In this document: positions 10,145 to 34,643 of the stretch, piece by piece
How the letters are laid out: each line of letters begins with the position of its first letter
Numbering within the stretch: the first letter of the stretch is position 1
Source: a virus
Lineage: Duplodnaviria > Heunggongvirae > Uroviricota > Caudoviricetes
DNA: 38,647 nucleotides
Direction: 5' to 3' (one strand)
IMG/VR virus record: IMGVR_UViG_2711768064_000004
Translations under genes and position numbers: made by a program
The notes under the pieces: model-generated
Told to the model about the DNA's origin: nothing
Databases searched by the model: none
Seen by the model: the letters and a program-made list of their open reading frames with translations, nothing else

Positions 10145-10711
10145 TCAGGGCGATTCATTGTTCTCATTCGCCGGAAATTTTCTATAAATGGTAGAAACGC
10201 CCACATCAAAAATCAGTGCAATACGCTGTCTTGATTCTCCGGCCTCGAGTAAACGCCCAATCTGTGCCCACTGTTCGGTGGTCAACTTAGGACGGCGTCC
10301 ACCTACTCTGCCTTTGGCACGAGCTGCAGCCAGCCCTGCCCTGGTACGTTCAACTATCAGTTCGCGTTCCATTTCAGCCAGGGCACCCATGACATGAAAA
10401 AAGAAACGGCCCATTGGGGTGCTGGTATCAATACTGTCAGTCAGGCTTCGGAAATTCACGCCTCGCTGACGCAACTCTTCTATCAGCGTAACAAGATGCC
10501 GCATACTGCGCCCCAACCTGTCCAGCTTCCAGACAACCAGCGTGTCTCCTGCCGATAGTGTCCTGAGCAGTTTTTTCAACCCTGGTCTGTCGGACTTAGT
10601 GCCACTGATTTTATCCTCAAAAATCCGCTCACATCCCGCGCAGTTCAGTGCATTACGTTGCAAATCGGTGTTCTGGTCATTTGTTGACACGCGTACATAG
10701 CCAATAAGCAT
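10145..10711 (-). CDS. site-specific DNA invertase (serine recombinase, Gin/Pin/Cin/Hin family)
   Basis: Start taken at MLIGYVRVSTNDQ (catalytic Ser motif); very high similarity to Mu Gin / e14 Pin across the length as recalled; C-terminal HTH. Confidence 0.92.
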   Translation of the reverse strand: MLIGYVRVSTNDQNTDLQRNALNCAGCERIFEDKISGTKSDRPGLKKLLRTLSAGDTLVVWKLDRLGRSMRHLVTLIEELRQRGVNFRSLTDSIDTSTPMGRFFFHVMGALAEMERELIVERTRAGLAAARAKGRVGGRRPKLTTEQWAQIGRLLEAGESRQRIALIFDVGVSTIYRKFPANENNESP

Positions 10712-10738
10712 GAGCATCCCCCTGAATAAAAACCGGGG

Positions 10739-11365
10739 ATGATGCCAGTTAGCCATTATCTCTGCATTTTCATAAACGTTGGTTTGGGAGAAGGCTCTGC
10801 ATTACCTGTTGGTGTCCCTGTTCCGTGGCCTTCAGCCACTCCGCCAACAGGCTGGCTGAAATGCAATGGTGCGGCTTTTTCTGCTGAAGAATACCCGGAA
10901 CTGGCAAAGGCTTACCCGACAAATAAATTGCCAGATTTACGTGGTGAGTTTATTCGTGGCTGGGATGACGGGCGAGGGATTGATGAGGGGCGCATACTTC
11001 TCAGTTGTCAGAGTTTTGCTTTCCAGGACCATGCGCACGCTCTGCCAACCGGAGTGGGTAATCCGTCAGACCAGATGGAAAGCGATATCTATGCGGTTTT
11101 CAACGATGTACCAGAAATACCCAGTGCGGCCCTGAGTCCATCGTCGTCAGGAACATCATGGGACGCAACCAGTAGGGCAGACAAGGTAATCCTTTATCGC
11201 AAGGACCTTTCACCAACAGGTAATAACAACGCAATAGCGACCGGATTACCACCATTCAGGACTTACAGGGCATCGACCTCAGACGGTGTTACTCATCCGT
11301 CCGTGTACGCATCTGAAACCCGTCCGCGCAACATTGCATTTAACTACATCGTGAGGGCTGCATAA
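10739..11365 (+). CDS. alternative (currently silent) tail-fibre C-terminal variable segment with tail-collar-type receptor-binding domain
   Basis: ORF begins inside the crossover site; real coding part is about 10795-11365, fused to constant H after inversion (junction GLGE shared). Contains a GWLKCNGAAFSAEEYPELAKAY...LPDLRGEFIRGWDDGRG collar-domain signature. Confidence 0.75.
   Translation: MMPVSHYLCIFINVGLGEGSALPVGVPVPWPSATPPTGWLKCNGAAFSAEEYPELAKAYPTNKLPDLRGEFIRGWDDGRGIDEGRILLSCQSFAFQDHAHALPTGVGNPSDQMESDIYAVFNDVPEIPSAALSPSSSGTSWDATSRADKVILYRKDLSPTGNNNAIATGLPPFRTYRASTSDGVTHPSVYASETRPRNIAFNYIVRAA
10767..10794. repeat. invertase crossover site (gix/pix-like), left
   Basis: TTTTCATAAACGTTGGTTTGGGAGAAGG; its reverse complement shares a 15-bp perfect core (CTTCTCCCAAACCAA) plus flanking matches with 12452-12479; resembles gix consensus. 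Confidence 0.75.
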
Positions 11366-11970
11366 TGGCGAAAGCAAAATTAAACAGTGCGTTTATTGCC
11401 ACCGTGGCAGGAGAAATCACTGTGTACAACTACCGGGGCGACACCCGCGAATACATATCCTCATCGGTTGAGTATCTGCCTGTGGGGGTGGGTATTCCTG
11501 CCAATTCCTGTACCGATGCGCCCGGCACACATAAGGCTGGTTATGCAATCTGCCGTTCTGCAGATTTTAACTCATGGGAATATGTGTCAGACCATCGCGG
11601 TGAAATTGTCTATGGCATCGAAACGGGGGAATCAAAAGAAATTACTGTGCCGGGGGATTACCCTGAAAATACGACCACTTTTGCCCCATTAACGCCATAC
11701 GATAAATGGGATGGTGAGAAATGGGTAACAGATACCGAGGCACAGCATAGCGCCGCAGTAGATGCAGCAGAAGTACAGCGCCAGTCTCTGATTGATGCTG
11801 CTATGGCTTCCATCAGTCTGATTCAGCTGAAATTGCAGGCCGGACGTAAACTGACGCAGGCAGAAACAACCCGCCTTAACGCTGTGCTGGATTACATTGA
11901 CGCGGTGACGGCAATAGATACCAGCACCGCGCCTGATATTATTTGGCCTGTATTCCCTGAGACTGATTAA
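11365..11970 (+). CDS. tail fibre assembly protein (lambda Tfa / Mu U family), partner of the silent fibre variant
   Basis: 201-aa ORF with the conserved Tfa C-terminus (TSTAPDIIWPVFPE) and N-terminal similarity to lambda Tfa as recalled; start overlaps stop of the upstream variable segment. Confidence 0.85.
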   Translation: MAKAKLNSAFIATVAGEITVYNYRGDTREYISSSVEYLPVGVGIPANSCTDAPGTHKAGYAICRSADFNSWEYVSDHRGEIVYGIETGESKEITVPGDYPENTTTFAPLTPYDKWDGEKWVTDTEAQHSAAVDAAEVQRQSLIDAAMASISLIQLKLQAGRKLTQAETTRLNAVLDYIDAVTAIDTSTAPDIIWPVFPETD

Positions 11971-12199
11971 CCTCAATCAGTATTGGTTCGCCTTTCTCAT
12001 TAATTGTTAGCTCCATGCCCTGAGGAATTTCTGTCATAGTAAAAAACCAGTTGTCCTCCGGTAATTCAATAGCCCCGGTCACGTCATGAAGACCGGGGAT
12101 TACTTCAGTCAAAGTAACTGGATTAAACAGGCGCACAATAAACCCTCCATGAAAAAGCATTTGATGATGGTCTGCCGTCGTACATCTGGCAGCGGGCAT
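11939..12199 (-). CDS. hypothetical short protein at the tail-fibre-chaperone position of the expressed fibre variant
   Basis: 86-aa ORF downstream of H inside the invertible segment, convergent with the Tfa gene; overlaps H 3' end; start uncertain; no recognisable Tfa motif. Positional inference only. Confidence 0.3.
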   Translation of the reverse strand: MPAARCTTADHHQMLFHGGFIVRLFNPVTLTEVIPGLHDVTGAIELPEDNWFFTMTEIPQGMELTINEKGEPILIEVNQSQGIQAK

Positions 12200-13514
12200 A
12201 AAAGCCGGTATTTGTTACCTGATCATCCACGATCATTGAAACGTGAACATTATTAGGTGTGCTCTCGTAATCCGTTCTTATTCTTTCTGCGATACTGATA
12301 AAACGTGAAAGTTTAGGCAGTGCAATTGGGTAAACGACTTTAGCCAGTCCATTATCATTAGATCCACCGGTTCCAAATACTTCTATTGCACCATCTGACC
12401 AGCGTACCCATGCACCATTGGCATTAGCTCCTCGCTGAATGACATATCTGGCTTCTCCCAAACCAAGGTATGTGAGAAGACCAGCTACATCCTTTCCACT
12501 CAAATTAGTCAGCGTATTGTCCAGCGGTTGTTTACCTGCCAGTGCATTAAGCATTGTCGTGGCAAAGTTCGGGTCATTCCCCAGTGCCGCCGCCAGTTCG
12601 TTCAGTGTATCCAGTGCCGCAGGTGCAGAACCCACCATTCCTGCAATCGCTGATTTCACAAAAGCCGTAGTGGCAATCTGTGTATTATTGACCGACTGCG
12701 CCGCAGTGGGGGCTGTTGGCGTTCCAGTGAGTGCCGGACTCGACAGCGGCGCTTTCAGTGCCAGCGCATTGTTAATGGTGGTACTGAATTTCGGATCATT
12801 GTTAATGGCTACGGCTATTTCTTTCAGCGTGTCCAGCGTGGCTGGCGCACCATTAATAAGAGCCGTCAGTGCCGCCTGAACAAATGCGGTGGTCGCAAGC
12901 TGCGTGGTATTATTCCCCGCCGCTGGCGTTGGCGCTTTGGGGGTTCCGGTAAACGTTGGACTTTCTTTGGGTGCATACTGTGAATGCGGGTCCGGCGCGG
13001 CAAGATGTTTTGCCATCAGGTCATCCACGTACACCTTCAGCTCCAGTGCCTTGTCATCCACATACTTGCGGGTTGCCAGCACTACAGCAGGGTCGATTTT
13101 CAGGGTGATATTGTCCGTGCTGCTGGTAATCAGCACCATGCGCACGGTCTGGGTACGCCCGCTGCCTTCAGCCAGTTGCGGCTTGTAGCTTTCCGGGCAG
13201 TTGCCCACGGCAATCAATGCACCTGATTCATCAAACAGGCCCACTTCACGTATCCACCAACCGCCCTCGTTTTCAGGGATCACCTGTTCAGCAATAATCT
13301 GGCTGCTGTTCTGCGGGTCGATATAGAGCATATTCAACGCAGCCCGGCGTTTCTCATTTACCAGTGCAGTCTGCTTTGCGTCCGGCGTTGGCAATGTTCC
13401 GCCGCCATCGCCCACCGCCATATGGGTAATTTTTAGCGGCACACCGAGCGCGGTGGCGCTGGCAAGTTTCGCCGCGCCAATATCCGTCAGCAGGGTATAA
13501 AATTTTGTGCTCAT
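12123..13514 (-). CDS. H: tail fibre protein H (constant N-terminal part fused to currently expressed variable C-terminus)
   Basis: 463-aa ORF; N-terminal region resembles P2 gpH with collagen-like/Thr-Ala repeats; crossover site at codons 346-354. Confidence 0.9.
   Translation of the reverse strand: MSTKFYTLLTDIGAAKLASATALGVPLKITHMAVGDGGGTLPTPDAKQTALVNEKRRAALNMLYIDPQNSSQIIAEQVIPENEGGWWIREVGLFDESGALIAVGNCPESYKPQLAEGSGRTQTVRMVLITSSTDNITLKIDPAVVLATRKYVDDKALELKVYVDDLMAKHLAAPDPHSQYAPKESPTFTGTPKAPTPAAGNNTTQLATTAFVQAALTALINGAPATLDTLKEIAVAINNDPKFSTTINNALALKAPLSSPALTGTPTAPTAAQSVNNTQIATTAFVKSAIAGMVGSAPAALDTLNELAAALGNDPNFATTMLNALAGKQPLDNTLTNLSGKDVAGLLTYLGLGEARYVIQRGANANGAWVRWSDGAIEVFGTGGSNDNGLAKVVYPIALPKLSRFISIAERIRTDYESTPNNVHVSMIVDDQVTNTGFYARCQMYDGRPSSNAFSWRVYCAPV
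12452..12479. repeat. invertase crossover site (gix/pix-like), right, inside gene H
   Basis: CTTCTCCCAAACCAAGGTATGTGAGAAG in inverted orientation relative to 10767-10794; encodes LLTYLGLGE of H (residues 346-354). Confidence 0.75.
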
Positions 13515-23244: not shown

Positions 23245-25011
23245 ATGAACACCACACTGACACCCGCAGATCTCGATCCCCGTCGGCAGGCCATGCTGCT
23301 GTACTTTCAGGGATACCGCGTAGCCCGCATTGCTGAAATGCTGGGCGAGAAAGTTGCAACCGTTCACAGCTGGAAAAAACGCGACAAGTGGGGTGACTAT
23401 GGGCCGCTGGATCAGATGCAGCTCACCACCGCCGCACGCTACTGCCAGCTCATTATGAAGGAGCACAAAGAAGGGAAAGATTTCAAAGAAATTGACCTGC
23501 TGGCGCGCCAGTCGGAACGCCACGCGCGCATCGGCAAGTTTAACAATGGCGGTAACGAAGCCGACTTAAACCCTAACGTCGCCAACCGCAACAAAGGCCC
23601 GCGCCGTCAGCCGGAAAAGAATATTTTCACCGATGAGCAGATTGAGAAGCTGGAAGAAATCTTCCATTCCTCCATGTTCAACTACCAGCGCCACTGGTGG
23701 GAAGCCGGAAAAACCAACCGCATCCGCAACCTGCTGAAGTCACGCCAGATCGGCGCGACCTTTTACTTTGCCCGTGAAGCCCTGATTGACGCCCTTCTGA
23801 CTGGACGTAACCAGATTTTCCTTTCCGCCAGTAAAGCACAGGCCCACGTCTTTAAACAGTACATCATCGACTTCGCCAAAGAAGTGGAGGTGGAGCTGAA
23901 AGGCGATCCGATGGTGCTTCCCAACGGGGCCACGCTTTACTTCCTCGGCACCAATGCCCGCACAGCCCAGAGTTACCACGGCAACCTGTATCTGGATGAA
24001 TATTTCTGGATACCGAAATTCCAGGAGCTGCGCAAAGTGGCTTCCGGTATGGCTATTCACAAAAAATGGCGACAAACCTATTTTTCCACGCCATCCAGCC
24101 TGACACACAGTGCTTATCCGTTCTGGTCCGGTGCGCTGTTCAACCGTGGGCGCAACAAAGCCGATAAGGTGGACATCGACCTGTCCCACAGCAATCTGGC
24201 CCCCGGCCTGCTGTGCGCAGACGGGCAATACCGCCAGATAGTCACCGTGGAAGATGCAGTGCGCGGCGGATGTAACCTGTTCGACCTCGATCAGTTACGC
24301 ATGGAGTACAGCCCGGACGAATACCAGAACCTGCTGATGTGCGAGTTTGTGGACGATCTCGCGTCTGTGTTCCCACTCAGCGAGCTGCAGGCGTGCATGG
24401 TGGACAGTTGGGAAGTCTGGACCGACTTTCATGCACTGGCCCTTCGCCCGTTTGGGTGGCGCGAAGTGTGGATCGGTTATGACCCGGCAAAAGGTACGCA
24501 GAACGGCGACAGCGCCGGATGCGTGGTGGTGGCACCGCCAGCCGTGCCGGGCGGTAAGTTCCGCATTCTTGAGCGTCACCAGTGGCGCGGGATGGACTTC
24601 CGCGCCCAGGCTGACGCCATCAAAAAACTGACCGAGCAGTACAACGTGACCTACATCGGCATCGACTCGACAGGTGTCGGCCACGGGGTTTACGAGAACG
24701 TGAAAGCGTTTTTTCCAGCCGTCCGGGAGTTTGTCTACAACCCCAACGTTAAAAACGCTCTGGTACTCAAGGCCTACGACATTATCAGCCACCGCCGTCT
24801 GGAGTTTGACGCCGGGCACACCGACATTGCGCAGTCATTCATGGCAATCCGTCGCGCCACCACCGCCAGTGGCAACCGCCCAACCTATGAAGCCAGCCGC
24901 AGCGAAGAAGCCAGCCACGCCGATCTGGCCTGGGCAACAATGCACGCACTGTTTAACGAACCGCTGCAGGGCGAATCCGCCAATACCAGCAATATTGTGG
25001 AGATTTTTTGA
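23245..25011 (+). CDS. P: terminase large (ATPase) subunit P
   Basis: 588-aa ORF resembling P2 gpP. Confidence 0.9.
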   Translation: MNTTLTPADLDPRRQAMLLYFQGYRVARIAEMLGEKVATVHSWKKRDKWGDYGPLDQMQLTTAARYCQLIMKEHKEGKDFKEIDLLARQSERHARIGKFNNGGNEADLNPNVANRNKGPRRQPEKNIFTDEQIEKLEEIFHSSMFNYQRHWWEAGKTNRIRNLLKSRQIGATFYFAREALIDALLTGRNQIFLSASKAQAHVFKQYIIDFAKEVEVELKGDPMVLPNGATLYFLGTNARTAQSYHGNLYLDEYFWIPKFQELRKVASGMAIHKKWRQTYFSTPSSLTHSAYPFWSGALFNRGRNKADKVDIDLSHSNLAPGLLCADGQYRQIVTVEDAVRGGCNLFDLDQLRMEYSPDEYQNLLMCEFVDDLASVFPLSELQACMVDSWEVWTDFHALALRPFGWREVWIGYDPAKGTQNGDSAGCVVVAPPAVPGGKFRILERHQWRGMDFRAQADAIKKLTEQYNVTYIGIDSTGVGHGVYENVKAFFPAVREFVYNPNVKNALVLKAYDIISHRRLEFDAGHTDIAQSFMAIRRATTASGNRPTYEASRSEEASHADLAWATMHALFNEPLQGESANTSNIVEIF

Positions 25012-26054
25012 TGAGTGAACCCGAAGCCTTAACCAGCTCAACGCCAACAGAAGCTACGGCGCCTAAAAACGCAGGCGTAACTGCCGAGGCTTTCAGCTTT
25101 GGTGACCCGATCCCGGTGCTGGATCGCCGCGAGCTGCTGGACTATGTGGAATGCGTACAGATGGACAGATGGTATGAGCCGCCAGTAAGCTTTGACGGGC
25201 TGGCGCGAACCTACCGCGCCGCTGTGCATCACAGCTCACCGATTGCTGTTAAGCGTGACATTCTCAGCAGTACCTACATTCCGCACCGCCTGCTCAGCCA
25301 GCAGGCTTTTGCCCGTTTCGTCCAGGACTATCTGGTGTTCGGTAACGCCTATCTGGAAAAGCGCACCAACCGGCTCGGCGGCGTGCTCTCGCTGGAGCCA
25401 GCACTGGCGAAGTACACACGGCGAGGCGTGGACCTCGACACCTACTGGTTTATGCAGTATGGCCTAACCACGCAGCCCTATGAATTCACGCAGGGTAACA
25501 TCTTTCATTTACTGGAGCCGGATATTAATCAGGAGATTTACGGGCTGCCCGGCTATCTTTCCGCCATTCCATCAACCCTGCTCAACGAGTCCGCAACGCT
25601 GTTCCGCCGGAAGTATTACATCAACGGCAGCCATGCGGGTTTCATCATGTACATGACCGACGCAGCACAGAACCAGGAGGACGTGAACAATATCCGCCAG
25701 GCAATGAAAAGCGCCAAAGGGCCGGGCAACTTCCGTAACCTGTTTATGTATTCGCCCAACGGCAAAAAAGACGGTATCCAGATCATCCCGCTGTCGGAAG
25801 TTGCGGCAAAAGATGAGTTTCTGAACATCAAGAACGTGAGCCGCGATGACATGATGGCAGCGCACCGCGTTCCGCCGCAGATGATGGGCATAATCCCCAA
25901 CAATACTGGCGGTTTTGGTGATGTGGAGAAAGCCAGCCGCGTGTTTGTACGAAATGAATTAATACCGCTTCAAGAAAGGATTAAAGAACTCAATGAATGG
26001 TTAGGGGATGAAGTTATTAGATTTGCGAAATATACACTCGACGACATAAGCTAA
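25008..26054 (+). CDS. Q: portal protein Q
   Basis: 348-aa ORF resembling P2 gpQ; coupled to P (ATGA overlap); last ~30 codons AT-rich. Confidence 0.9.
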   Translation: MMSEPEALTSSTPTEATAPKNAGVTAEAFSFGDPIPVLDRRELLDYVECVQMDRWYEPPVSFDGLARTYRAAVHHSSPIAVKRDILSSTYIPHRLLSQQAFARFVQDYLVFGNAYLEKRTNRLGGVLSLEPALAKYTRRGVDLDTYWFMQYGLTTQPYEFTQGNIFHLLEPDINQEIYGLPGYLSAIPSTLLNESATLFRRKYYINGSHAGFIMYMTDAAQNQEDVNNIRQAMKSAKGPGNFRNLFMYSPNGKKDGIQIIPLSEVAAKDEFLNIKNVSRDDMMAAHRVPPQMMGIIPNNTGGFGDVEKASRVFVRNELIPLQERIKELNEWLGDEVIRFAKYTLDDIS

Positions 26055-26102: not shown

Positions 26103-26798
26103 CTAAAACTTATCAATTTCCATACATGAAATAGCATCATTGAAAATCGAAAAATGCTCATCAGGAACCACTGCAGAAGCCCCACTGGTTAATTCAAAAC
26201 TAATCTTTGAACCAAGGTAAAACCCTCCAGCTTTTATTTTATCGAGTTTGAATTCACTATCCCCAACAAAAATCTTCAAATCATGCAAAGCATCGCCACT
26301 AGAATTCAATTCCAAACATGCTCTTGTTTTTTCAGTAACAGGAAGATTTGACACCTTCACTTTTGAAATGCCAAACACCTTTACGCCGAAATTTTCTCGA
26401 ATGACCCTCATGAAAGCTTTAAGATCTACGGTTAAATTTCCATAAGCAACATTTAATCCTTCGGCCTGAGATAAAAAATCGATAAAAGGTTTAACTGTTT
26501 TTGGAGGGTTGTAAAAAGTTAACAAACATATCTTATTGCTGAGGATTTGGATAGAAAAACTAATCTGATCAAATACAACCCTTTCGAATTCCAGCACCTC
26601 ACCGAATGGATCGGCAATTGGCTCTAAGACAACAGATTTTTTATTGAAAGTTGCAGTCATACCATTATGAATGGTTTCATACTTAGTAAAACCAGCACCA
26701 ATAGCATCAGAATAAGGCGTGTTTTTGATAAAATCAAAGACAGCCTCAGGGCTGGTCCTGATTTTTAATCTCATCCACTTCAATCTTAATTGTGACAT
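26103..26798 (-). CDS. hypothetical protein, third gene of cargo operon (no recognisable domain)
   Basis: Start at ATG 26798 with AAGGAG SD 6 nt upstream; 231 aa; AT-rich codon usage unlike flanking phage genes. Confidence 0.7.
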   Translation of the reverse strand: MSQLRLKWMRLKIRTSPEAVFDFIKNTPYSDAIGAGFTKYETIHNGMTATFNKKSVVLEPIADPFGEVLEFERVVFDQISFSIQILSNKICLLTFYNPPKTVKPFIDFLSQAEGLNVAYGNLTVDLKAFMRVIRENFGVKVFGISKVKVSNLPVTEKTRACLELNSSGDALHDLKIFVGDSEFKLDKIKAGGFYLGSKISFELTSGASAVVPDEHFSIFNDAISCMEIDKF

Positions 26799-26817
26799 AG
26801 CCACTCCTTATGATGTA

Positions 26818-27882
26818 TTAGCTGATTTCCATTATAATCGAATAAGCTCTATTTTCAATTAATTTATTAAATCGCTCAAGTTCTCTACCAGAGAGCTTTT
26901 GCGGTTTACTGAAATACTGTCCGTTTGCCTTATATTTTCTGACTCCCTTAACTAAATATGAGAAATTAGTACAATTGAGAGGATCACCAAACTGGGCCTC
27001 AAGCTCAAATATATCTGGATCTGCCAAGTTCTCCTTGACCTTCCATTTTATTTTCCAGATATAGAATCCTCTATCATAAAGATCGCTTAATTCATCAGAT
27101 TTTAGTACACCCTCCCCCTTAAGTGATGCCCTAGACACGTGCACTCCAGTTTCGGTGTTTCCATCTTCAGCCTCTATAGTTTCAGGCTTAGGGTGATATA
27201 CATAAGCATCCGTCACATCCAGTAACTCATAACCATCAAGTGTACGGATTAATTTATCGAAGAATAAAGTTCTAACATCAGCAGATGTATTGTGAGAGAG
27301 AGAAATTTCGTTTAATTTTAAATCAAGGTTACTATTATCCGCTTGCTCGTTCTGAATAGCGCTGATATGCCCCAGTAAAAGCCCCTCGTAATCTTCAAGA
27401 TTTTCATTATCTGGACGGCGGATACTGTAACCATTAGTAAGAGGCTCAATTTCAATTAACGCTTCTTTATTAATAGCCTGTTTGAAATCACTTTTGCCAT
27501 AATTAGTCGAAAGATACCTAATATTAATCAGAACTCGCGACCCATCCACGATTATTTTACAATAATCATCCTGCTCGGTAATTTCTTTCTTAAGTTTTTC
27601 TGCCGCGTCTATAATACCTTTCTTATCTATGTCAGTCTCAATTCTTACACATGTAATTTTTTCGGTCCTTGTCTGACCACCTAACAGGGTTGCAATTTTT
27701 TGATGCTCGTAATAATCATGAGTCATTCGAGAATAGTTTCTTGCTAATTCTTTTCGAGGAGTTTTTTTACATATGATCGTTCCTCTCTCTAAGAAAAGGT
27801 CTTGAATTTCATTTATGGTAATTTGCTTTTGGTTTAAAGCATCATACAAAGCTTTATCAGTTACGCTGTGAATATTTTTCAT
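26818..27882 (-). CDS. hypothetical protein, second gene of cargo operon (no recognisable domain)
   Basis: Start at ATG 27882 forming ATGA overlap with stop of the upstream gene; GGGAG SD; 354 aa. Confidence 0.7.
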   Translation of the reverse strand: MKNIHSVTDKALYDALNQKQITINEIQDLFLERGTIICKKTPRKELARNYSRMTHDYYEHQKIATLLGGQTRTEKITCVRIETDIDKKGIIDAAEKLKKEITEQDDYCKIIVDGSRVLINIRYLSTNYGKSDFKQAINKEALIEIEPLTNGYSIRRPDNENLEDYEGLLLGHISAIQNEQADNSNLDLKLNEISLSHNTSADVRTLFFDKLIRTLDGYELLDVTDAYVYHPKPETIEAEDGNTETGVHVSRASLKGEGVLKSDELSDLYDRGFYIWKIKWKVKENLADPDIFELEAQFGDPLNCTNFSYLVKGVRKYKANGQYFSKPQKLSGRELERFNKLIENRAYSIIMEIS

Positions 27883-28943
27883 TTCGGCTCCCAAGAAATA
27901 ACTTCTGCAGAAAAGAATTCTTTTACTGTAGACACAACTTTAACGTCTAAATCTTCAAGCCTCTTTTTAGCTTCTTCATCTAATCCATACTCATGTGCAT
28001 ATTTTTCAACTCCCCGTTGAAAATGTGAGAGAATCCTCTCATCTTTTTCTCGATATGCCAGCCTTATCCTAATTTTATTTATACCATCAAGAATTTGATA
28101 ATTTGACAAAATATCCAACAAATAAAAGAATTCATTGTCGCTATTACCTTTTTTGTTGTAATACACAACAAACCCTTCTGGATAAACTTCCTCCTCAATA
28201 CCTTTAGCTCTGTTAAATTTATAAACAGCACCATGTTTGATTATCATGAAAGGTGATGACAAGACTTCTATAGTAGCTGGAAGATATTTTTCAGTCACAG
28301 CAACCTTATGAAAAGTCAATTGAGGGTAATAGAATCCATAGTCTTCATCAGGAAACTCTTTCTTAGCAATCAAATCATTCATATCATTCGTTATTGCCAA
28401 CATATAATTAATCAGAAACGGATCGATTATATGAATTTGCTGACCTGCTGATAAAGGAATCTTTTCTAAGTTGACAGCCTTATCTCTTCTTCCTTTAGCG
28501 GGTTTAGGAGGATTAAAAAAATCATAAAAATCATGCTGCAACTGATTATCATGATTAAAAACAAATAATAAACCGCGAACTTCACAGTCAATTTGAGAAA
28601 AATTATATTTTTCTGACCACTCAGGACTATAGCGAGCACATTCAATAGTTTTTGCTAATGACTCCAATGCAGATTCTATTTTAGAAGCATTTATTGAGCC
28701 TGCTTTATAACTTTTTAAATCAGTATTTAAATAAATGACTTTGTTTAAATATGGGTCTTTATAACTAAATACAACATCTACAGGATGCGTGTGCTTCTGC
28801 TTCTTACCTTCAGGCTTATGTTTAGCCTCATCATCACAAAGGAAATCTCGGTCGCAGGGGCCATGCTGCTGCCACTTAAATCGACTCAGTAGATCCTCAG
28901 ATATGCGTTTCGCCAAATCTTCAATAGGGCCGTTCTCTGCCAT
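27879..28943 (-). CDS. hypothetical protein, first gene of cargo operon; weak PD-(D/E)xK-like pattern
   Basis: 354-aa ORF with AAGGAA SD; N-terminal region has E...HPVD-x17-DLK spacing compatible with, but not proving, a restriction-endonuclease-like fold. Confidence 0.7.
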   Translation of the reverse strand: MAENGPIEDLAKRISEDLLSRFKWQQHGPCDRDFLCDDEAKHKPEGKKQKHTHPVDVVFSYKDPYLNKVIYLNTDLKSYKAGSINASKIESALESLAKTIECARYSPEWSEKYNFSQIDCEVRGLLFVFNHDNQLQHDFYDFFNPPKPAKGRRDKAVNLEKIPLSAGQQIHIIDPFLINYMLAITNDMNDLIAKKEFPDEDYGFYYPQLTFHKVAVTEKYLPATIEVLSSPFMIIKHGAVYKFNRAKGIEEEVYPEGFVVYYNKKGNSDNEFFYLLDILSNYQILDGINKIRIRLAYREKDERILSHFQRGVEKYAHEYGLDEEAKKRLEDLDVKVVSTVKEFFSAEVISWEPK

Positions 28944-29044
28944 TTGATTTCCTTACTTTTTTGCAGACAATTCTAATTGAAAGATAAAGGTAAGCTTTTT
29001 TGCTTGCAAGGACTTTGGACCTAACGTGAGACGCTGAGCGCGCG

Positions 29045-29063
29045 CTCGTATCCCCGCCACGCC
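29045..29063. other. candidate cos (cohesive-end) site of the prophage
   Basis: Minus-strand reading GGCGTGGCGGGGATACGAG matches the first 13 nt of the 186/P2-type 19-nt cohesive end as recalled (GGCGTGGCGGGGA...); located in a GC-rich island between Q-side and A-side cargo, where cos sits in P2-family prophages. Confidence 0.55.
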
Positions 29064-29334
29064 TGCCCGCTTTATATAGTGGTTTTCATGCACCTGCATG
29101 ACATAAGCAAAAGCCCGCCATACCTAGCAGGCCCCAACTAGAGCGATCCTTAAACGATCATGCGGATTCATGCAGTATAGACATGCAGTAGTTACGCCAA
29201 ACCGTGTAGCGAGGCCACCTGCTAAAAATGTTCACGGAGTAACATTTGATCTCCACTGCAAAAAATGAAACTTTCGCTTTCACCAAATATAACAAGAGGT
29301 AATCTTTGGTGTTTTACACAGCAAACGGTGAGCC

Positions 29335-29916
29335 ATGAAAGTCAACATAAAACAGATTGTTGGAAATTGGGAATTAGGTCTTGCGATGGATAAACACAGC
29401 ATCCGCAGCATTCCCATTGGTTACGATGAGTGGGGACATATGCGGTTTGAGACGGAGCGTACTGAGGTAGGCGAATCTCTTTTCCAGCTTAAATACCGTG
29501 ACGATTGGTCACAAGTTAAGCCTTTAGCCCAATGCCTAGCAGAGCATGCCTTTCCTCATTTCAGCAATGTCGGGTTTATCGTTCCAATGGCTGCATCTAA
29601 TCAGCGTGCACGCCAGCCAGTGACCGAAATAGCTCAGGAACTAGCCAAACTAGTTGGCAAACCATGCTTCGATGACCTCTTGTTGAAAGCCCCCGGCGGG
29701 GCATCGCTAAAGAACCTGAATACAAAAGAAGAGAAAATCACGGCGCTGGGTAATTCGTTCTCTGTTAATGACAGTATTGAGAATAATGGCAACTGGAATG
29801 TCCTTATCATTGACGACCTCTACCATACAGGCGCATCTATGGAGGCTGCTTGTGCTGTGCTAAACGATTATACTAAGGTTAGAAGCATTTATGTTGCAGC
29901 TTTGACTTGGAGATAG
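29335..29916 (+). CDS. phosphoribosyltransferase (PRTase)-like domain protein
   Basis: 193 aa; C-terminal VLIIDDLYHTGASMEAA matches the type I PRTase PRPP-binding signature; no zinc-finger cysteines (not ComF-like). Confidence 0.75.
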   Translation: MKVNIKQIVGNWELGLAMDKHSIRSIPIGYDEWGHMRFETERTEVGESLFQLKYRDDWSQVKPLAQCLAEHAFPHFSNVGFIVPMAASNQRARQPVTEIAQELAKLVGKPCFDDLLLKAPGGASLKNLNTKEEKITALGNSFSVNDSIENNGNWNVLIIDDLYHTGASMEAACAVLNDYTKVRSIYVAALTWR

Positions 29917-29918
29917 TG

Positions 29919-30476
29919 ATGACTACGGTATTTGTTGCTGGTTCAATAACCATCAAAAACCTTGACACACTCATCGTGGATCGTCTGAAAAAAATTGTTA
30001 ACTCGCGTTTTCGTATTGTAGTTGGTGATGCCAATGGTGTTGATTCATCTGTTCAACGCGTATTGCTAGAACTTGGATGTGAAAAAGCCACAGTATTCAG
30101 TAGCTCAGAAAAACCGCGCAATAATCTTGGCTCATGGCCTGTACATGTAGTAAGTACTAGCCATGCAGCCGGCACTCGCGCGTTTTTCACTGCGAAAGAT
30201 CTCAAAATGGCAGAAGAAGCCGATTATGGATTAATGGTTTGGGATACGAAGAGCACGGGTACTCTGAGTAACGTGATTGAGCTTCTTAAACGTAAAAAAT
30301 ACTCTGTCGTTTTTGTTAATAAATACAAAAAGTTCTTTATTATCAAATCTCCAGAGCACCTTGACGCTTTGATTAACTGCATGTCACCAGCCTCTTTGGA
30401 AAAAGCTGATGAAAAGATCAGATTGCGCGAAAAAATCAACCAACTAAAAAACGAGCAAATCCAGATGTTTATGTGA
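29919..30476 (+). CDS. SLOG-superfamily (DprA/Smf- or LOG-like Rossmann) domain protein
   Basis: Start at ATG 29919, 2 nt after the PRTase stop, GGAGA SD; motif VFVAGS...RIVVGDANGVDSSVQRVLLELG resembles the DprA/Smf Gly-rich nucleotide-binding loop. Family assignment from motif only. Confidence 0.6.
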   Translation: MTTVFVAGSITIKNLDTLIVDRLKKIVNSRFRIVVGDANGVDSSVQRVLLELGCEKATVFSSSEKPRNNLGSWPVHVVSTSHAAGTRAFFTAKDLKMAEEADYGLMVWDTKSTGTLSNVIELLKRKKYSVVFVNKYKKFFIIKSPEHLDALINCMSPASLEKADEKIRLREKINQLKNEQIQMFM

Positions 30477-30565
30477 AATTCTTTGATGATAACACTAACG
30501 CCTCGCCCTGCTCGTTGTTCAACCTTGCTGGCTTCAGAATCAAGTACTGATGCCAGCAACGTTTC

Positions 30566-30799
30566 TTAATGCAGCCAGCTGTCGTCTTCCCACACCTTCT
30601 GCATAATTTTCATCACTTGTTTTCTTTCTTCGTCCAGTTGCAGTCCGGTCAGTTCCACACCGTTAGAGCTACCTTTTCGGATACGAATTACCGTTTTGGG
30701 ATACAGGGGGCGCAGATTGCGGTAAAGCTCGGATTCAAGGGCGTCCAGGGTAGACTGGCTAATCTTCTGCTCTTTATCGATCATTATTTCAATGCGCAT
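30566..30799 (-). CDS. DinI-like protein (Tum C-terminal-domain-like)
   Basis: Start at MRIEIMIDKE with GAGGTGA SD; aligns with E. coli DinI (MRIEV...WE..DW) as recalled. Confidence 0.8.
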   Translation of the reverse strand: MRIEIMIDKEQKISQSTLDALESELYRNLRPLYPKTVIRIRKGSSNGVELTGLQLDEERKQVMKIMQKVWEDDSWLH

Positions 30800-30809
30800 A
30801 AAAGTCACC

Positions 30810-30998
30810 TCAACTGATGACATCCATTGAGCGGTTGTATTCGTGAGTTCTGATTTTTGCCATGAGTTCATCAGTCAATTCAGAAACCCACTGCAGGGCC
30901 AGCCCCTTCTCTTCATCACTACACTCACTAGCCGCTACAAGCTTAAGAAAAAAATCAATGCGCTGGAGCTTCAAAGACTCCAAAAAATAGTCCTGCAT
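30810..30998 (-). CDS. hypothetical small protein, first gene of SOS-regulated pair (possible Tum N-terminal-like antirepressor part)
   Basis: 62-aa ORF with AGGAGG SD 4 nt upstream; LexA box and promoter-like elements just upstream. Confidence 0.5.
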   Translation of the reverse strand: MQDYFLESLKLQRIDFFLKLVAASECSDEEKGLALQWVSELTDELMAKIRTHEYNRSMDVIS

Positions 30999-31150: not shown

Positions 31151-33565
31151 TTAATACAGGTTTCGCCACTTATCATCTTCCTGCAAACGCTGGTTCCGAT
31201 AGAAGATACGCAGGCCTGCTCCTGACGGAATACTGCCTCCGCGAAGCAGTAAATCGACCTCTTTCTCGCTGCCATCAAATCCCCTGGACTTCAGTTCATA
31301 CACGAGCTGCAGTCGCTGATGGTCTGTAATTCGCTGTTTGTAGTCTTTACGCCGTTTCGGTTTCACCAGGCGTAACCTTGCTGCCAGTTCCCGGCGCTCT
31401 TTTTTGCTCATACTGTGCAGGTAATCGTGCAACTCCTTGTCATCCATGCGGGTGATATCCGTTCTGGTATCTCCATCAGCTGATTTGTCTTTCCCTTGTT
31501 GGTACAAATTTTCAGCAAGGGGACAGTTATTGCCACGAGTCCAAGGGGCGCAAGCGCCCTGGTCGGCTGCCGCCTCCTGAACGTCAACGGCTTTACGAAC
31601 CATTTTCCACTTCACTGCATGAGTGCAGATCTTGCCCTCTGCAATGGGTGACCAGATGCCATAAATACGAATGCCGTGATCGCCATAGGCGGTCGGCTCT
31701 TCGTTGATTTCATAAGCGGTTCTGATGAGGTGATATTTACGGGGAACCAGTACGCCGCCCTGCTTCATGATGTAGGTGGCAAAACAACCAGCATCAGCAG
31801 CAGCCAGAATGGCATCAAGACGCGGGTTATCCAGTACCGGCGCACCTGCTTTTTTGTCACCCTGTTGCCTTGCCGCCTGACCAGCCAGCAAGCGAAGTTC
31901 ACGGTAAGCCTGACGCCCCGGAATACCAAAGAAGCGGAATTGCTGAACACGATGCAGAGACGCCCAGGCATTCACGTATTCAGCGTTATCACGCAGAGAT
32001 TTACCCGTTTCCTTGCTGATCTCGCCAGCCAGACCACGACCGTCAATGTTCTTACTGATATATTTCGCGATGTAGCTTGTCGGCGTTCCTTTGCGCGGGT
32101 TAATCAACTCAGACTTAAAGCGCGGCCCAGTGTTATTGCCCAGCTCCTCGCGGTCTTCACGGATGGCAAACTTACGCAGTAATGCAGTGATGGCACGGCG
32201 GTCTTTTTTGCGCATGAAACACAACAGGTGCCAGTGAACTGTGCCATCATGATGCGGCTCAGCCACCCGCACGCCATACCAGCGCAACCCGGCTTTGTGC
32301 ATCGCCTTACGAAATGCAGCAAACATGCCGACCAGATAATCGCTGCTTTGTCTTACCGTCGCGTTTGTCCAGGTCGGGTTTGGTCTGCCGTTATTTAGCG
32401 TGGAATGGAAACGCGACGGACAGGTGATAGTGTAGAAAACGGCGCAGTCACCGCGCATTTCCGCGATAAGCTCCAGACCTTTAACACAGGCCATCATCTC
32501 ATTGCGGCGATGCGCAGGGTTGCTGCTGCTGGCGTTTACCACATCCTCCATGTCCAGCGTGTCGCCGTCTTCGTTCACCAGTTCATGAGAACGGAAAAAC
32601 TCCAGCGACTTACGGCGCTGCTCACGTTTATGCATCACGGCTTCATAGCTGACATAAGGAGATGCTTTTTTGCTGACCAGGCAAACAGCGCGCAACTGCT
32701 CTTCCCGCCATTCGCAACGCATCTTCCATAATTTCCGGTACCACCAGTCGGCGCACAACATACGCGCCAGCGAACCCGGAATGAGTTCATAGGGCACGGG
32801 TTTACGGCGGTTTCTTTTCCGACGGAGTTGCTCAAACGCAGGTGGGATGACATCCAGACGCAGGGTTTCCGCTGCCACCTTTTCCCATGTCTTGCGGATT
32901 TCTTCTGGCTTAACGTCATCGGTGGCATACAAATCACCACAAGCTGCATCAAGGCACATACTCATATGCGCAGCTACCAGGGTGGACAGGCGTTTCACCT
33001 GATCCTGACTCATTTCAGGCAGGATCAGCAGGCCGTCCAGCCCTTCATGGCTTGCCATAAAGCGAAAAGATGCAGATAGCTGACTGTCGCGTACATGCTC
33101 CAGTCGTTCCAGACATGGCTTAATCGTCTCACGTAAATAGCGGGAATAAGCCTTTGGCCTGCCCAGGCTGCTGAAGTATTCAATACGTTGCATCAGCGGC
33201 TTGCTGATATGGGAAGGCTGGGCGTTGACGTCCGCCAGAATGACCATGTCTGAATTAAAACGCTGCTGCTCATGCGCCAGCTTTGCCCGGCTAATGAGCT
33301 TATCCTGCTCCATTTCGCGCTGGACAGGATCACGTGATTCATTAAAGAAATAACGCTCCCAGACCTGATCACTCAGTGCCTCGCGGCGCAACTGTTCCTG
33401 CTCGTTATCGGCAGCGTACAGAGTGATCAGGTTTGAAAGCGTAGAAACCGGCGCAACTTCCGCCGGGTCCAGATAAGGGTTAATGGCCTTTTTCGGGCTG
33501 TTCCATGAGAATGCTGCAGCAGCCTCGTTAAAGCCGCAGCAGTTGTTCATATCGGCATGACTCAT
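31151..33565 (-). CDS. A: replication initiation protein A (rolling-circle nickase)
   Basis: 804-aa ORF resembling P2 gpA (e.g. [14 protein letters not shown] block). Confidence 0.9.
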
Positions 33566-34419
33566 GCACGTACTCCGTACACGGCAGAACTATCCACGCC
33601 ACGCGAATAATCAAATCCCATCCAGCAGCGCGGCCCGGAAACAGCAATGATTTCTGTTGCTGATTTACCCTCGCCAGCTGCCACACCGATGCTGCGTTTT
33701 ACCTTGATATAGTGGTGAGTAAAATTGCGATACAGCGAACGGATCAGGGATGTGTCACTGTTAGAAACAATGACTGGATGTCCTTCTGATGACCGATGTT
33801 CAAGAACGGATGCCAGGTGATACTGGTCATCTTCAGTGAAACCATCAGTGTGATAGCCGGAAAACGTACCGTCATACGGCGGATCGCAATACACCACATC
33901 TCCCGCCTTCAACATCGCCAGCGTTTCATCAAAGCTGGCGCAGATAAACGTTGCTCGCTGGGCTTTTTCTGCAAATGTGCGAAGTTCTTTTTCAGGGAAA
34001 TACGGATTTTTATAATTACCGTAGGGGATGTTGAAATGCCCGCTCTTGTTATAGCGACATAAACCACGGTAACCGTGACGATTAAGATACAGGAAATATA
34101 CCGCTTTCATGAAATCAGTAATTTCAGTTGAGCAGTTAAACTCCTGCCTTATGTTGTAATAAGCCACCTCCCTGTTTGCGATCTCAAATAAAACTCTGGC
34201 GCGAGATATAAACGATTCACAATCAGCGGCAACCTTTTTATAGAGGTTGATTAAATCAGGATTAATATCCGCAACCAGATAGCTGGGATAATCCGTTTCC
34301 ATCATCACAGCACAGGAACCCGCGAAAGGTTCAACCAGTCGCGGGCCAGCAGGAAGGTATTTTTTCAGTTCTGGCATAATGGCGGTTTTATTTCCCGCCC
34401 ATTTCAGGATGGTGTTCAT
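33562..34419 (-). CDS. DNA adenine methyltransferase (Dam-like)
   Basis: Start at [11 protein letters not shown]; motif [10 protein letters not shown] and catalytic DPPY; ATGA overlaps with both the upstream TraR-like gene and downstream gene A. Confidence 0.85.
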
Positions 34420-34643
34420 ACAGCACCTCCGTTGTAATGTTTGCCTTTCAGTTCTGCGATTTCCTGACAGGTAATGCAAAGCTGCACTCCCGGAATGGCG
34501 CGGCGTCGTGCTGGCGGAATTGGCGCTTCACATTCAATGCAAAGTACGCGTGACACGCCCGGTGATTTGGCACGGGCTGCACGGATATGGCGCTGGCGTT
34601 CTTCTTCAACGCGCTGCTGTACGAGATCCATTGCATCAGCCAT
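34416..34643 (-). CDS. TraR/DksA-family C4 zinc-finger protein
   Basis: 75 aa; C-x2-C-x17-C-x2-C. Confidence 0.75.
   Translation of the reverse strand: MADAMDLVQQRVEEERQRHIRAARAKSPGVSRVLCIECEAPIPPARRRAIPGVQLCITCQEIAELKGKHYNGGAV

Follow-up and report, generated by a model that had tools for sequence, protein, structure and literature searches.

Two anti-phage systems, ShosTA (PMC11961720, PMC12961424) and PsyrTA/RqlHI (PMC4670107), are defined by the pairing of a phosphoribosyltransferase (PRTase) with a DprA-like protein of the SLOG superfamily. A "DprA + PRTase" system from the P2 hotspot of avian pathogenic Escherichia coli (APEC) O1 was validated against T7 and lambda by Rousset et al. 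2022, in a study showing that this hotspot beside cos holds defence systems (PMC9122126), and both ShosTA and PsyrTA were confirmed as defence by Millman et al. 2022. Here we analyse two adjacent genes, a PRTase gene (gene 1) and a SLOG gene (gene 2), at positions 29335-30476 of IMG/VR record IMGVR_UViG_2711768064_000004. The whole stretch of 38,647 nucleotides, hereafter the window, belongs to a P2-like prophage integrated beside a ybjL-like gene. The initial annotation had placed the pair in the old/tin slot and read it as a defence candidate, which is reasonable; it had also held that such a pairing was not a described defence system, and this does not stand. A PRTase with a DprA-like SLOG protein is an already described defence class and not a new kind of system. 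On balance, we favour the view that this prophage cargo is a minimal module for abortive infection, of the ShosTA/PsyrTA type, in which the PRTase would be the effector and the SLOG protein its antidote.

ShosT is a HAD-like pyrophosphatase fused to a PRTase, and its toxicity is abolished by the D331A/D332A substitution (Pu et al. 2025, PMC11961720). According to the same work, ShosA is an unstable DNA-binding protein with SAM and DprA domains, and T7 gp0.7 shut-off sets the system off. ShosTA is represented by E. coli APEC O1/KTE181 and by PDB entries 8ZVA-8ZVD. ShosA dimerises and binds both single-stranded DNA (ssDNA) and RecA (Yang et al. 2026, PMC12961424); Arg139 and Arg234 are essential for ssDNA binding and antitoxicity, whereas Lys200 is a RecA contact and K200E abolishes RecA binding and antitoxin activity. 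The SAM domain is needed for ShosA stability. PsyrTA/RqlHI consists of a RecQ-like helicase-PRTase toxin and a DprA-like antidote, the PRTase domain being necessary, but not sufficient, for genotoxicity (PMC4670107). The catalytic aspartate pair (DD) of the loop that binds phosphoribosyl pyrophosphate (PRPP) is required for the toxicity of both ShosT and RqlH.

The exact pair of the window is system #98 in Table S5 of Rousset et al. 2022, which prints both sequences and records no test for it. Gene 2 differs from the printed sequence by one residue, the sole difference being residue 128 (30297-30302), which is Tyr in the window and Cys in the table. The features of the pair are as follows.

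29335-29916, plus strand: gene 1, a ComF-like type I PRTase of 193 amino acids (aa), in which a PRTase core follows an N-terminal beta-rich hood (residues 6-42)
29584-29622, plus strand: ComF-type loop after strand 2 of gene 1, PMAASNQRARQPV
29800-29838, plus strand: PRPP-binding loop of gene 1 (residues 156-168), VLIIDDLYHTGAS
29909-29921, plus strand: translational-coupling junction, with a GGAG Shine-Dalgarno sequence (29909-29912) lying within the final codons of gene 1, TGG AGA
29919-30476, plus strand: gene 2, a basic SLOG protein of 185 aa (isoelectric point 9.5), whose C-terminal helices follow a DprA/YpsA-like Rossmannoid core (residues 1-142)
30018-30050, plus strand: SLOG glycine-rich ligand loop of gene 2, VVGDANGVDSS (residues 34-44), the counterpart of SGLAYGIDQS in ShosA
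30111-30125, plus strand: KPRNN motif of gene 2, with P66, R67, N68 and N69 invariant, aligning with Y-P199-K200-N of ShosA (hhalign)
30249-30275, plus strand: phosphate-loop motif of gene 2, KSTGTLSNV, with S112, G114, T115 and N118 invariant, the counterpart of KSGTSHTV in ShosA
30456-30470, plus strand: C-terminal QIQMF of gene 2 (the protein ends QIQMF-M), a match to the beta-clamp-binding consensus Q-phi-x-[L/M]-[F/L]

Both open reading frames (ORFs) start with ATG and coincide with RefSeq coding sequences, WP_024219116.1 ("ComF family protein") and WP_024219117.1 ("hypothetical protein"), annotated in 16 complete E. coli genomes at identities of at least 99%. Homologues at E<=1e-3 numbered 741 for gene 1 and 1813 for gene 2, with a mean column identity of about 60% and shared contigs. 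Both are genuine conserved genes and not chance ORFs.

We next consider gene 1, which had been called a type I PRTase from its PRPP-binding signature; structure and profile comparisons bear this out. Its AlphaFold2 (AF2) model (predicted local distance difference test, pLDDT, 91.1) shows a type I PRTase fold headed by a beta hood at the N-terminus. A Foldseek search of the PDB placed Helicobacter pylori ComFC first (7p0h, E 2.6e-6, TMq 0.62) and also matched APRTs and ShosT (8zvd/8zvb/8zvc, TMq 0.52-0.54). Such fold searches were needed because single-sequence and profile searches of PDB sequences matched gene 1 at the PRPP loop only and found nothing for gene 2. Among PADLOC profiles, gene 1 matched ShosT (PDLC03962; E 1.3e-8, 33 bits) over positions 81-208 of 237, that is, the PRTase core only, and PsyrT (E 1.5e-7) over positions 538-681 of 689 only. 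Its relatives behaved in the same way, 55/56 matching ShosT (best E 5.7e-11) and 56/56 matching PsyrT (best E 3e-11). With Pfam Pribosyltran, the protein of the window was sub-threshold (E 0.01) and 32 of the 56 relatives matched. Conservation in the family is concentrated in the two loops listed above. Within the PRPP loop, D160 is invariant, and conservation reaches 90% or more at D161, T165, G166, A167 and S168; the loop aligns with ShosT residues 326-348, KILVIDDFCTEGN, so that the catalytic DD pairs with ShosT D331/D332 (hhalign). Within the loop after strand 2, P84, A87, S88, R91, R93, Q94 and P95 are invariant, and a conserved Arg at this place is a hallmark common to ComFC-like and mobile-element PRTases (PMC5512222).

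Gene 2 had been assigned to the SLOG superfamily from its glycine-rich motif, and its AF2 model (pLDDT 93.7), in which strand 1 of the Rossmannoid core begins at residue 3, makes that membership certain at the level of predicted fold. Foldseek returned ShosA (8ZVA) first, followed by DprA structures, the SLOG domain of ThsA (7uxs among the matches) and LOG; these structure matches do not single out one SLOG clade. No Pfam or NCBIfam family matched gene 2, Pfam DprA (PF02481) included. The recurrent matches of its relatives in the defence library were limited to DprA-like antitoxins, PsyrA in 19/57 and ShosA in 15/57, all of them weak (best E 5.7e-4 for PADLOC ShosA, PDLC03961). Pfam DNA_processg_A matched 16/57 relatives with a best E of only 1.2e-3, and a YAcAr profile matched 2/57. 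Within the ligand loop, G36, D37, A38, G40 and D42 are invariant, and the invariant Arg67 is, by alignment only, the counterpart of the RecA-contacting Lys200 of ShosA. An extended hhalign comparison with the ShosA family showed collinear core motifs (GxAxGxD, P-K/R-N, F..., W..KS(x)GT..V).

LOG-family enzymes carry the motif PGGxGTxxE, in which the Glu is catalytic. In the gene 2 family the position of this Glu is occupied by the invariant Asn118 (G114-T115-L-S-N118), which disfavours a LOG phosphoribohydrolase identity and with it this part of the initial annotation; we reject that reading on this ground. The substitution also bears on a counter-defence or metabolic role, in which the pair would act as a nucleotide-signal sponge or cleaver (anti-Thoeris or anti-CBASS) or as a PRTase/LOG futile cycle altering PRPP and nucleotide pools for the phage. 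SLOG domains of ThsA do bind cyclic ADP-ribose isomers, LOG enzymes reverse PRTase chemistry, and the pair lies in a prophage. However, besides the missing Glu, profile affinities are with DprA-like antitoxins rather than with LOG or ThsA, and the pair was not found in 50,697 deposited phage genomes by DNA and protein searches, although it is common on plasmids and chromosomal islands. We consider this role very improbable. Thoeris-like signalling, also suggested at first, finds no supporting context either: ThsA carries its SLOG domain fused to a SIR2 or transmembrane effector and has a TIR partner, ThsB, whereas gene 2 is a single-domain protein. No PADLOC Ths profile matched the proteins of the window or the gene 2 relatives, and the neighbours are the PRTase, Rst_3HP and DinI genes.

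The resemblance of gene 1 to ComFC raised the question of competence. ComFC is an ssDNA-handling transformation protein (PMC9005727). Gene 1 has ComFC as its top structure match, to which it is closer than to ShosT, and shares the conserved Arg loop (R91 and R93); gene 2 has a DprA-like core, and both competence proteins act on ssDNA. In contrast to ComFC, gene 1 has no Cys in its N-terminal 60 residues (three in the whole protein), and thus no four-Cys zinc finger. It scored 23.8 bits with NCBIfam TIGR00201 comF against a cutoff of 233.55, which makes "ComF family protein" in RefSeq a loose name. Ordinary competence genes are ruled out by the curated cutoffs for comF and DprA and by the genomic context, which is mobile and patchy and holds no conserved competence locus; the initial annotation had named ordinary ComF/DprA orthologues in conserved chromosomal context as the finding that would count against it, and the pair does not have this character. 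A related possibility is that the pair is a DNA-handling accessory of mobile elements, a minimal ComFC-like and DprA-like couple that would process or protect ssDNA in recombination, establishment or replication restart and would not kill the host. The ComFC match, the basic DprA-like gene 2, a C-terminal tail that points to the replisome and the fact that ShosA promotes recombination are all in its favour. We nevertheless give it only a small probability: the ComFC zinc finger, the extended DprA sheet and the SAM domain are absent, the ssDNA-binding arginines of DprA/ShosA are not conserved, the comF and DprA thresholds are missed widely, and copies in chromosomal islands have no element to serve.

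A gene pair of a YpsA-family SLOG protein and a PRTase was reportedly seen by comparative genomics by Burroughs and colleagues in 2015. The same kind of pair is noted by Brzozowski et al. 2019 (PMC6459960). The affinities of the gene 2 family are for DprA, ShosA and PsyrA, not for YpsA, and this family is at most a candidate for the published "PRTase-coupled YpsA branch".

Comparison with the characterised systems showed the following. Like ShosTA, the locus joins a gene for a PRPP-binding PRTase to an adjacent gene for a DprA-type SLOG protein (here 2 nt apart), and both occupy the P2 hotspot beside cos. The two have in common a conserved DD PRPP loop, collinear SLOG core motifs and a Q-x-x-L/M-F/L tail at the C-terminus of gene 2 and of ShosA. 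Foldseek ranks ShosA first for gene 2, and the ShosT profile matches nearly all gene 1 relatives. The differences are those of size and layout: gene 1 has 193 aa and ShosT 424 aa, gene 2 has 185 aa with a smaller sheet and ShosA 327 aa, and the PRTase gene comes first in the window whereas canonical ShosTA, located in the same slot of APEC O1, has shosA followed by shosT. We reject orthology with ShosTA: hhalign gave no significant score for gene 1 against ShosT, or for gene 2 against ShosA or the ShosA family alignment. The pair is thus a compact predicted variant and not ShosTA itself, because several defining features of ShosTA are missing. With PsyrTA/RqlHI the pair shares the same ComF-like PRTase group and the order of PRTase first and antidote second, and PsyrA is the most frequent family match of gene 2; gene 1 lacks the RecQ-like helicase domain, and PsyrA/RqlI has about 400 aa against the 185 of gene 2.

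A new lead, from sequence motifs, is the clamp-binding-like tail of the gene 2 SLOG family, which recurs in ShosA. The consensus that QIQMF fits is the revised beta-clamp-binding one (bioRxiv 10.1101/2025.08.20.671105). A Qxx[LMI][FLI] motif lies within the last ten residues of 105/120 close gene 2 relatives. Among 60 full-length gene 2 representatives sharing no more than 50% identity, 27 had the motif in its penta- or hexapeptide form among their last 10 aa, against a chance expectation from shuffles of 1.45/60 (maximum 6 in 2000); the same tail scan found no such C-terminal motif in the gene 1 family. Tails of the ShosA family (QQLSLLGDE, GQLGLEL, GQLPLI, QQLTFL; ShosA itself from the APEC O1 locus, L002 5868-5894, with proteins P0241-P0360) have the canonical QL[SD]LF / QLxLxL form, so that a C-terminal Qxx[LM](x)[FL] tail is common to both families. 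Neither ShosTA mechanism paper mentions the clamp or DnaN (PMC11961720, PMC12961424), and the ShosA tail falls in a disordered region that Pu et al. 2025 tied to ShosA instability (PMC11961720). We infer from these motifs that the gene 2 tail may bind the beta-clamp; alternatively, the motif might be a degron or part of a coiled-coil dimerisation helix.

If the tail does tether the protein to the clamp, the pair could be the minimal core of a wider PRTase/SLOG conflict class that departs from current models of ShosTA. The SLOG protein, tethered by its Qxx[LM]F tail, would act at the fork without the DprA-type ssDNA arginines, and the PRTase would phosphoribosylate a DNA base or a replication-linked nucleotide, a DarTG-like logic built on PRPP chemistry. 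DarTG, a DNA ADP-ribosyltransferase toxin with a glycohydrolase antitoxin, is alike in logic only, as a nucleotide-transfer toxin countered by a DNA-acting partner. One SLOG relative is fused to NADAR, of the NAD/ADP-ribose-processing group, but neither DarT nor the macrodomain is homologous to the pair. We regard this wider class as a rather unlikely reading.

The two genes are translationally coupled, in agreement with the initial annotation: the TAG stop of gene 1 (29914-29916) is followed by 2 nt and the ATG of gene 2 (29919), and the Shine-Dalgarno GGAG is encoded by the conserved T-W-R/K C-terminus of gene 1. The arrangement TGGAGA-stop-(0-4 nt)-ATG is kept in seven loci from different taxa (L001, L004, L008, L010, L011, L013 and L014), always with the PRTase gene ahead of the SLOG gene. 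Both proteins diverge in parallel (55-71% and 55-64% identity), and the pair occurs in Enterobacterales, Neisseria, Betaproteobacteria and Acidobacteria. A full scan with hidden Markov models (HMMs) yielded 2086 clusters at 50% identity (E<=1e-3). Within prophages the pair was found in three slots, the old/tin slot being that of this window and of strain D2. A second allele (57% and 62% identity; L004-L007, 7411-8558) lies between gpD and ogr of another P2-like remnant, beside pheST/ihfA, and this position is a third cargo slot of P2-like elements. In E. coli the occurrence is rare and patchy, 18 and 8 of 5426 complete genomes, the latter count being that of the second allele, which is yet present in many draft assemblies (1119 index blocks). 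Elsewhere, the Neisseria copy is placed between housekeeping genes, the betaproteobacterial copy lies in an island that also encodes integrase, transposase, M78-HTH and reverse transcriptase proteins, and the Terracidiphilus copy has an addiction-antidote-type gene next downstream; the locus of P0083 is a 1-kb contig only. The pair is also on 101 plasmids, of which 55 are conjugative, including clinical Klebsiella and Enterobacter plasmids; one plasmid copy is beside restriction-modification systems and one beside IncFII repA. The pair travels as a fixed unit, in step, across phyla, prophage slots, plasmids and islands. This distribution is the footprint of a mobile conflict module and not of nucleotide salvage or competence.

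A further rival is a pure addiction module, which would stabilise mobile elements by post-segregational killing and have no anti-phage role. The conjugative plasmids and the copy by the IncFII repA region fit it, as do the two-gene layout of toxin-antitoxin type and the relatives associated or fused with the addiction-antidote domain dnstrm_HI1420. Against it are the prophage hotspot rich in validated defence systems, the Rst_3HP and restriction-modification neighbours, and the anti-phage activity of both ShosTA and PsyrTA; addiction and defence are moreover not mutually exclusive. In our estimate there is a slim chance that addiction is the whole function.

Longer relatives of gene 2 (proteins P0395, P0409, P0461, P0484, P0465 and P0500) carry the SLOG domain fused to other domains, namely NADAR, DUF4326, Abi_alpha, HEPN_AbiU2 and the addiction antidote dnstrm_HI1420, and P0500 is a genuine single-chain fusion of a gene-1-type PRTase with SLOG. 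A further apparent PRTase-SLOG fusion, P0504, was discarded as a frameshifted sequence. Fusion of distant SLOG relatives to Abi_alpha, HEPN_AbiU2, NADAR and an addiction-antidote domain supports a minimal abortive-infection module, as do the match of both folds to both ShosTA components, the slot held in common with the ShosTA of APEC O1 and the Rst_3HP block that adjoins the pair in the window. The same reading draws on the ShosT and PsyrT profile matches of the gene 1 family, the PsyrA and ShosA matches of the gene 2 family, the conserved catalytic DD, the spread as a fixed unit, the rare and patchy occurrence in E. coli and the C-terminal tail common to ShosA.

The fusions also favour the main rival, a defence pair in which the SLOG protein would sense ssDNA, a clamp-bound replication intermediate or a nucleotide and activate an otherwise inert PRTase by contact. 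The idea that DprA detects phage DNA and switches on the PRTase was put forward first by Rousset et al. 2022 (PMC9122126). SLOG relatives fused N-terminally to Abi_alpha and HEPN_AbiU2 have the usual sensor-effector layout, and the single-chain fusion P0500 also speaks for this rival. The very high conservation, with 43 and 31 invariant positions in the two proteins, is what would be expected of an interacting pair, and an inert PRTase would accord with the behaviour of RqlH, whose isolated PRTase domain is not toxic. However, the DprA-like protein is the antidote in both characterised relatives, where its deletion is lethal or not transformable, and ShosT and ShosA do not bind each other. We hold activation by contact to be possible, at a low probability.

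Several observations weigh against a toxin-antidote module of the ShosTA/PsyrTA type. Gene 1 lacks the N-terminal HAD-like pyrophosphatase of ShosT (residues 1-164): the library HMM scan gave no HAD match, and the AF2 model holds a beta hood and PRTase core only. Gene 2 lacks the N-terminal SAM domain of ShosA, and the two ssDNA-binding arginines are not conserved, the counterpart of R139 being Ile10 (G137-T-R139 against G8-S9-I10) and that of R234 being Ala92 (F231-V-R-R234 against F89-F-T-A92), by motif alignment and not by 3D superposition. With hhalign, gene 2 reached only a non-significant E of 0.21-0.24 against the 42-sequence ShosA family, and the protein of the window did not match the PADLOC ShosA profile at E<=1. 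The RqlH PRTase domain alone was not toxic in published work. A real PRTase-SLOG fusion such as P0500 is unusual for a separable toxin and antitoxin, and fusions of SLOG to effectors agree with a sensor no less than with an antidote. The promoter scan showed no clear sigma-70 promoter upstream of the pair. Finally, we found no experiment on this family in the later literature, the system tested by Rousset et al. 2022 having been the ShosTA of APEC O1 instead.

With these reservations, a minimal abortive-infection module remains the reading that we favour, and it would work as follows. Gene 1 would bind PRPP through its intact DD/TGAS loop and transfer phosphoribose to an acceptor, either a free base or a base in DNA, which would disturb nucleotide pools or DNA replication and harm the cell. 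Gene 2, produced in fixed proportion by translational coupling, would restrain this effect. It would probably do so at DNA or the replisome, because it has DprA-type ligand loops, an Arg in place of the Lys by which ShosA contacts RecA, and the clamp-binding-like tail. [quoted passage not shown]

The surroundings of the pair consist of the following features.

23245-26054: terminase and portal genes, the portal by Pfam and the terminase after the RefSeq annotation of the strain D2 equivalent
26103-28943, minus strand: Rst_3HP three-gene block (233, 358 and 354 aa; PADLOC Hp1 2e-66, Hp2 7e-40, Hp3 4e-10)
29038-29070: cos-like sequence, a variant of P2 cos and the left boundary of the cargo slot, located by aligning the upstream regions of APEC O1 and D2
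30521-30563: hairpin between the convergent gene 2 and DinI-like gene (RNA fold free energy -19.8 kcal/mol, z=-4.45)
30566-30871, minus strand: DinI-like gene, downstream of the pair
31151-33565, minus strand: gpA, farther downstream of the pair

The pair accordingly lies where the initial annotation had put it, between cos and the DinI-like and gpA genes. Its GC content is 42.9% against 53-55% in phage core genes, and we therefore regard it as foreign cargo. The Rst_3HP block, placed between the portal gene and cos, has a GC content of 35%; the site is a hotspot with two cargo modules, one either side of cos. The exact P2 cos 19-mer was not found in the window with up to 3 mismatches allowed. 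Strain D2, whose cargo left of cos differs, has an identical stretch from cos up to gene 1 (29038-29334). In the variant cos region (29038-29200), cos is followed by repeated CATGCA/TGCATG motifs, partly kept in APEC O1, which may be terminase-recognition elements. None of 200 shuffles was as stable as the hairpin downstream of gene 2, which is probably a bidirectional terminator; it was missed by the consensus terminator scan because its loop exceeds 8 nt.

Two further observations concern other parts of the window. Directly downstream of gpA, in the early operon, lies a D12-class N6-adenine DNA methyltransferase gene (33562-34479, minus strand; Pfam 2.7e-75), an orphan Dam-like methylase. 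In addition, a serine invertase gene (Resolvase and HTH_7; 10145-10756, minus strand) abuts a tail-collar fragment (10739-11365, plus strand), which is followed by a tail-fibre assembly gene (11365-11970, plus strand), with a tail-fibre gene adjoining (12123-13514, minus strand). The region 10145-11970 resembles a Cin/Gin-type invertible switch of host range.

The PADLOC 2.0.0 profiles used for defence annotation would miss the pair, despite the large size of its family (about 2,000 clusters at 50% identity). If active, it would be the smallest natural version of PRTase/DprA-like defence, about 1.15 kb encoding two single-domain proteins, and the domains that ShosTA and PsyrTA have in addition (pyrophosphatase, SAM, helicase) would then be accessories. 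Dissection of the PRTase acceptor and of the antidote mechanism would become easier. The missing ssDNA-binding arginines, together with a clamp-like tail that is also present in ShosA, would probe the generality of the "DprA-like ssDNA/RecA" model of the antitoxin.

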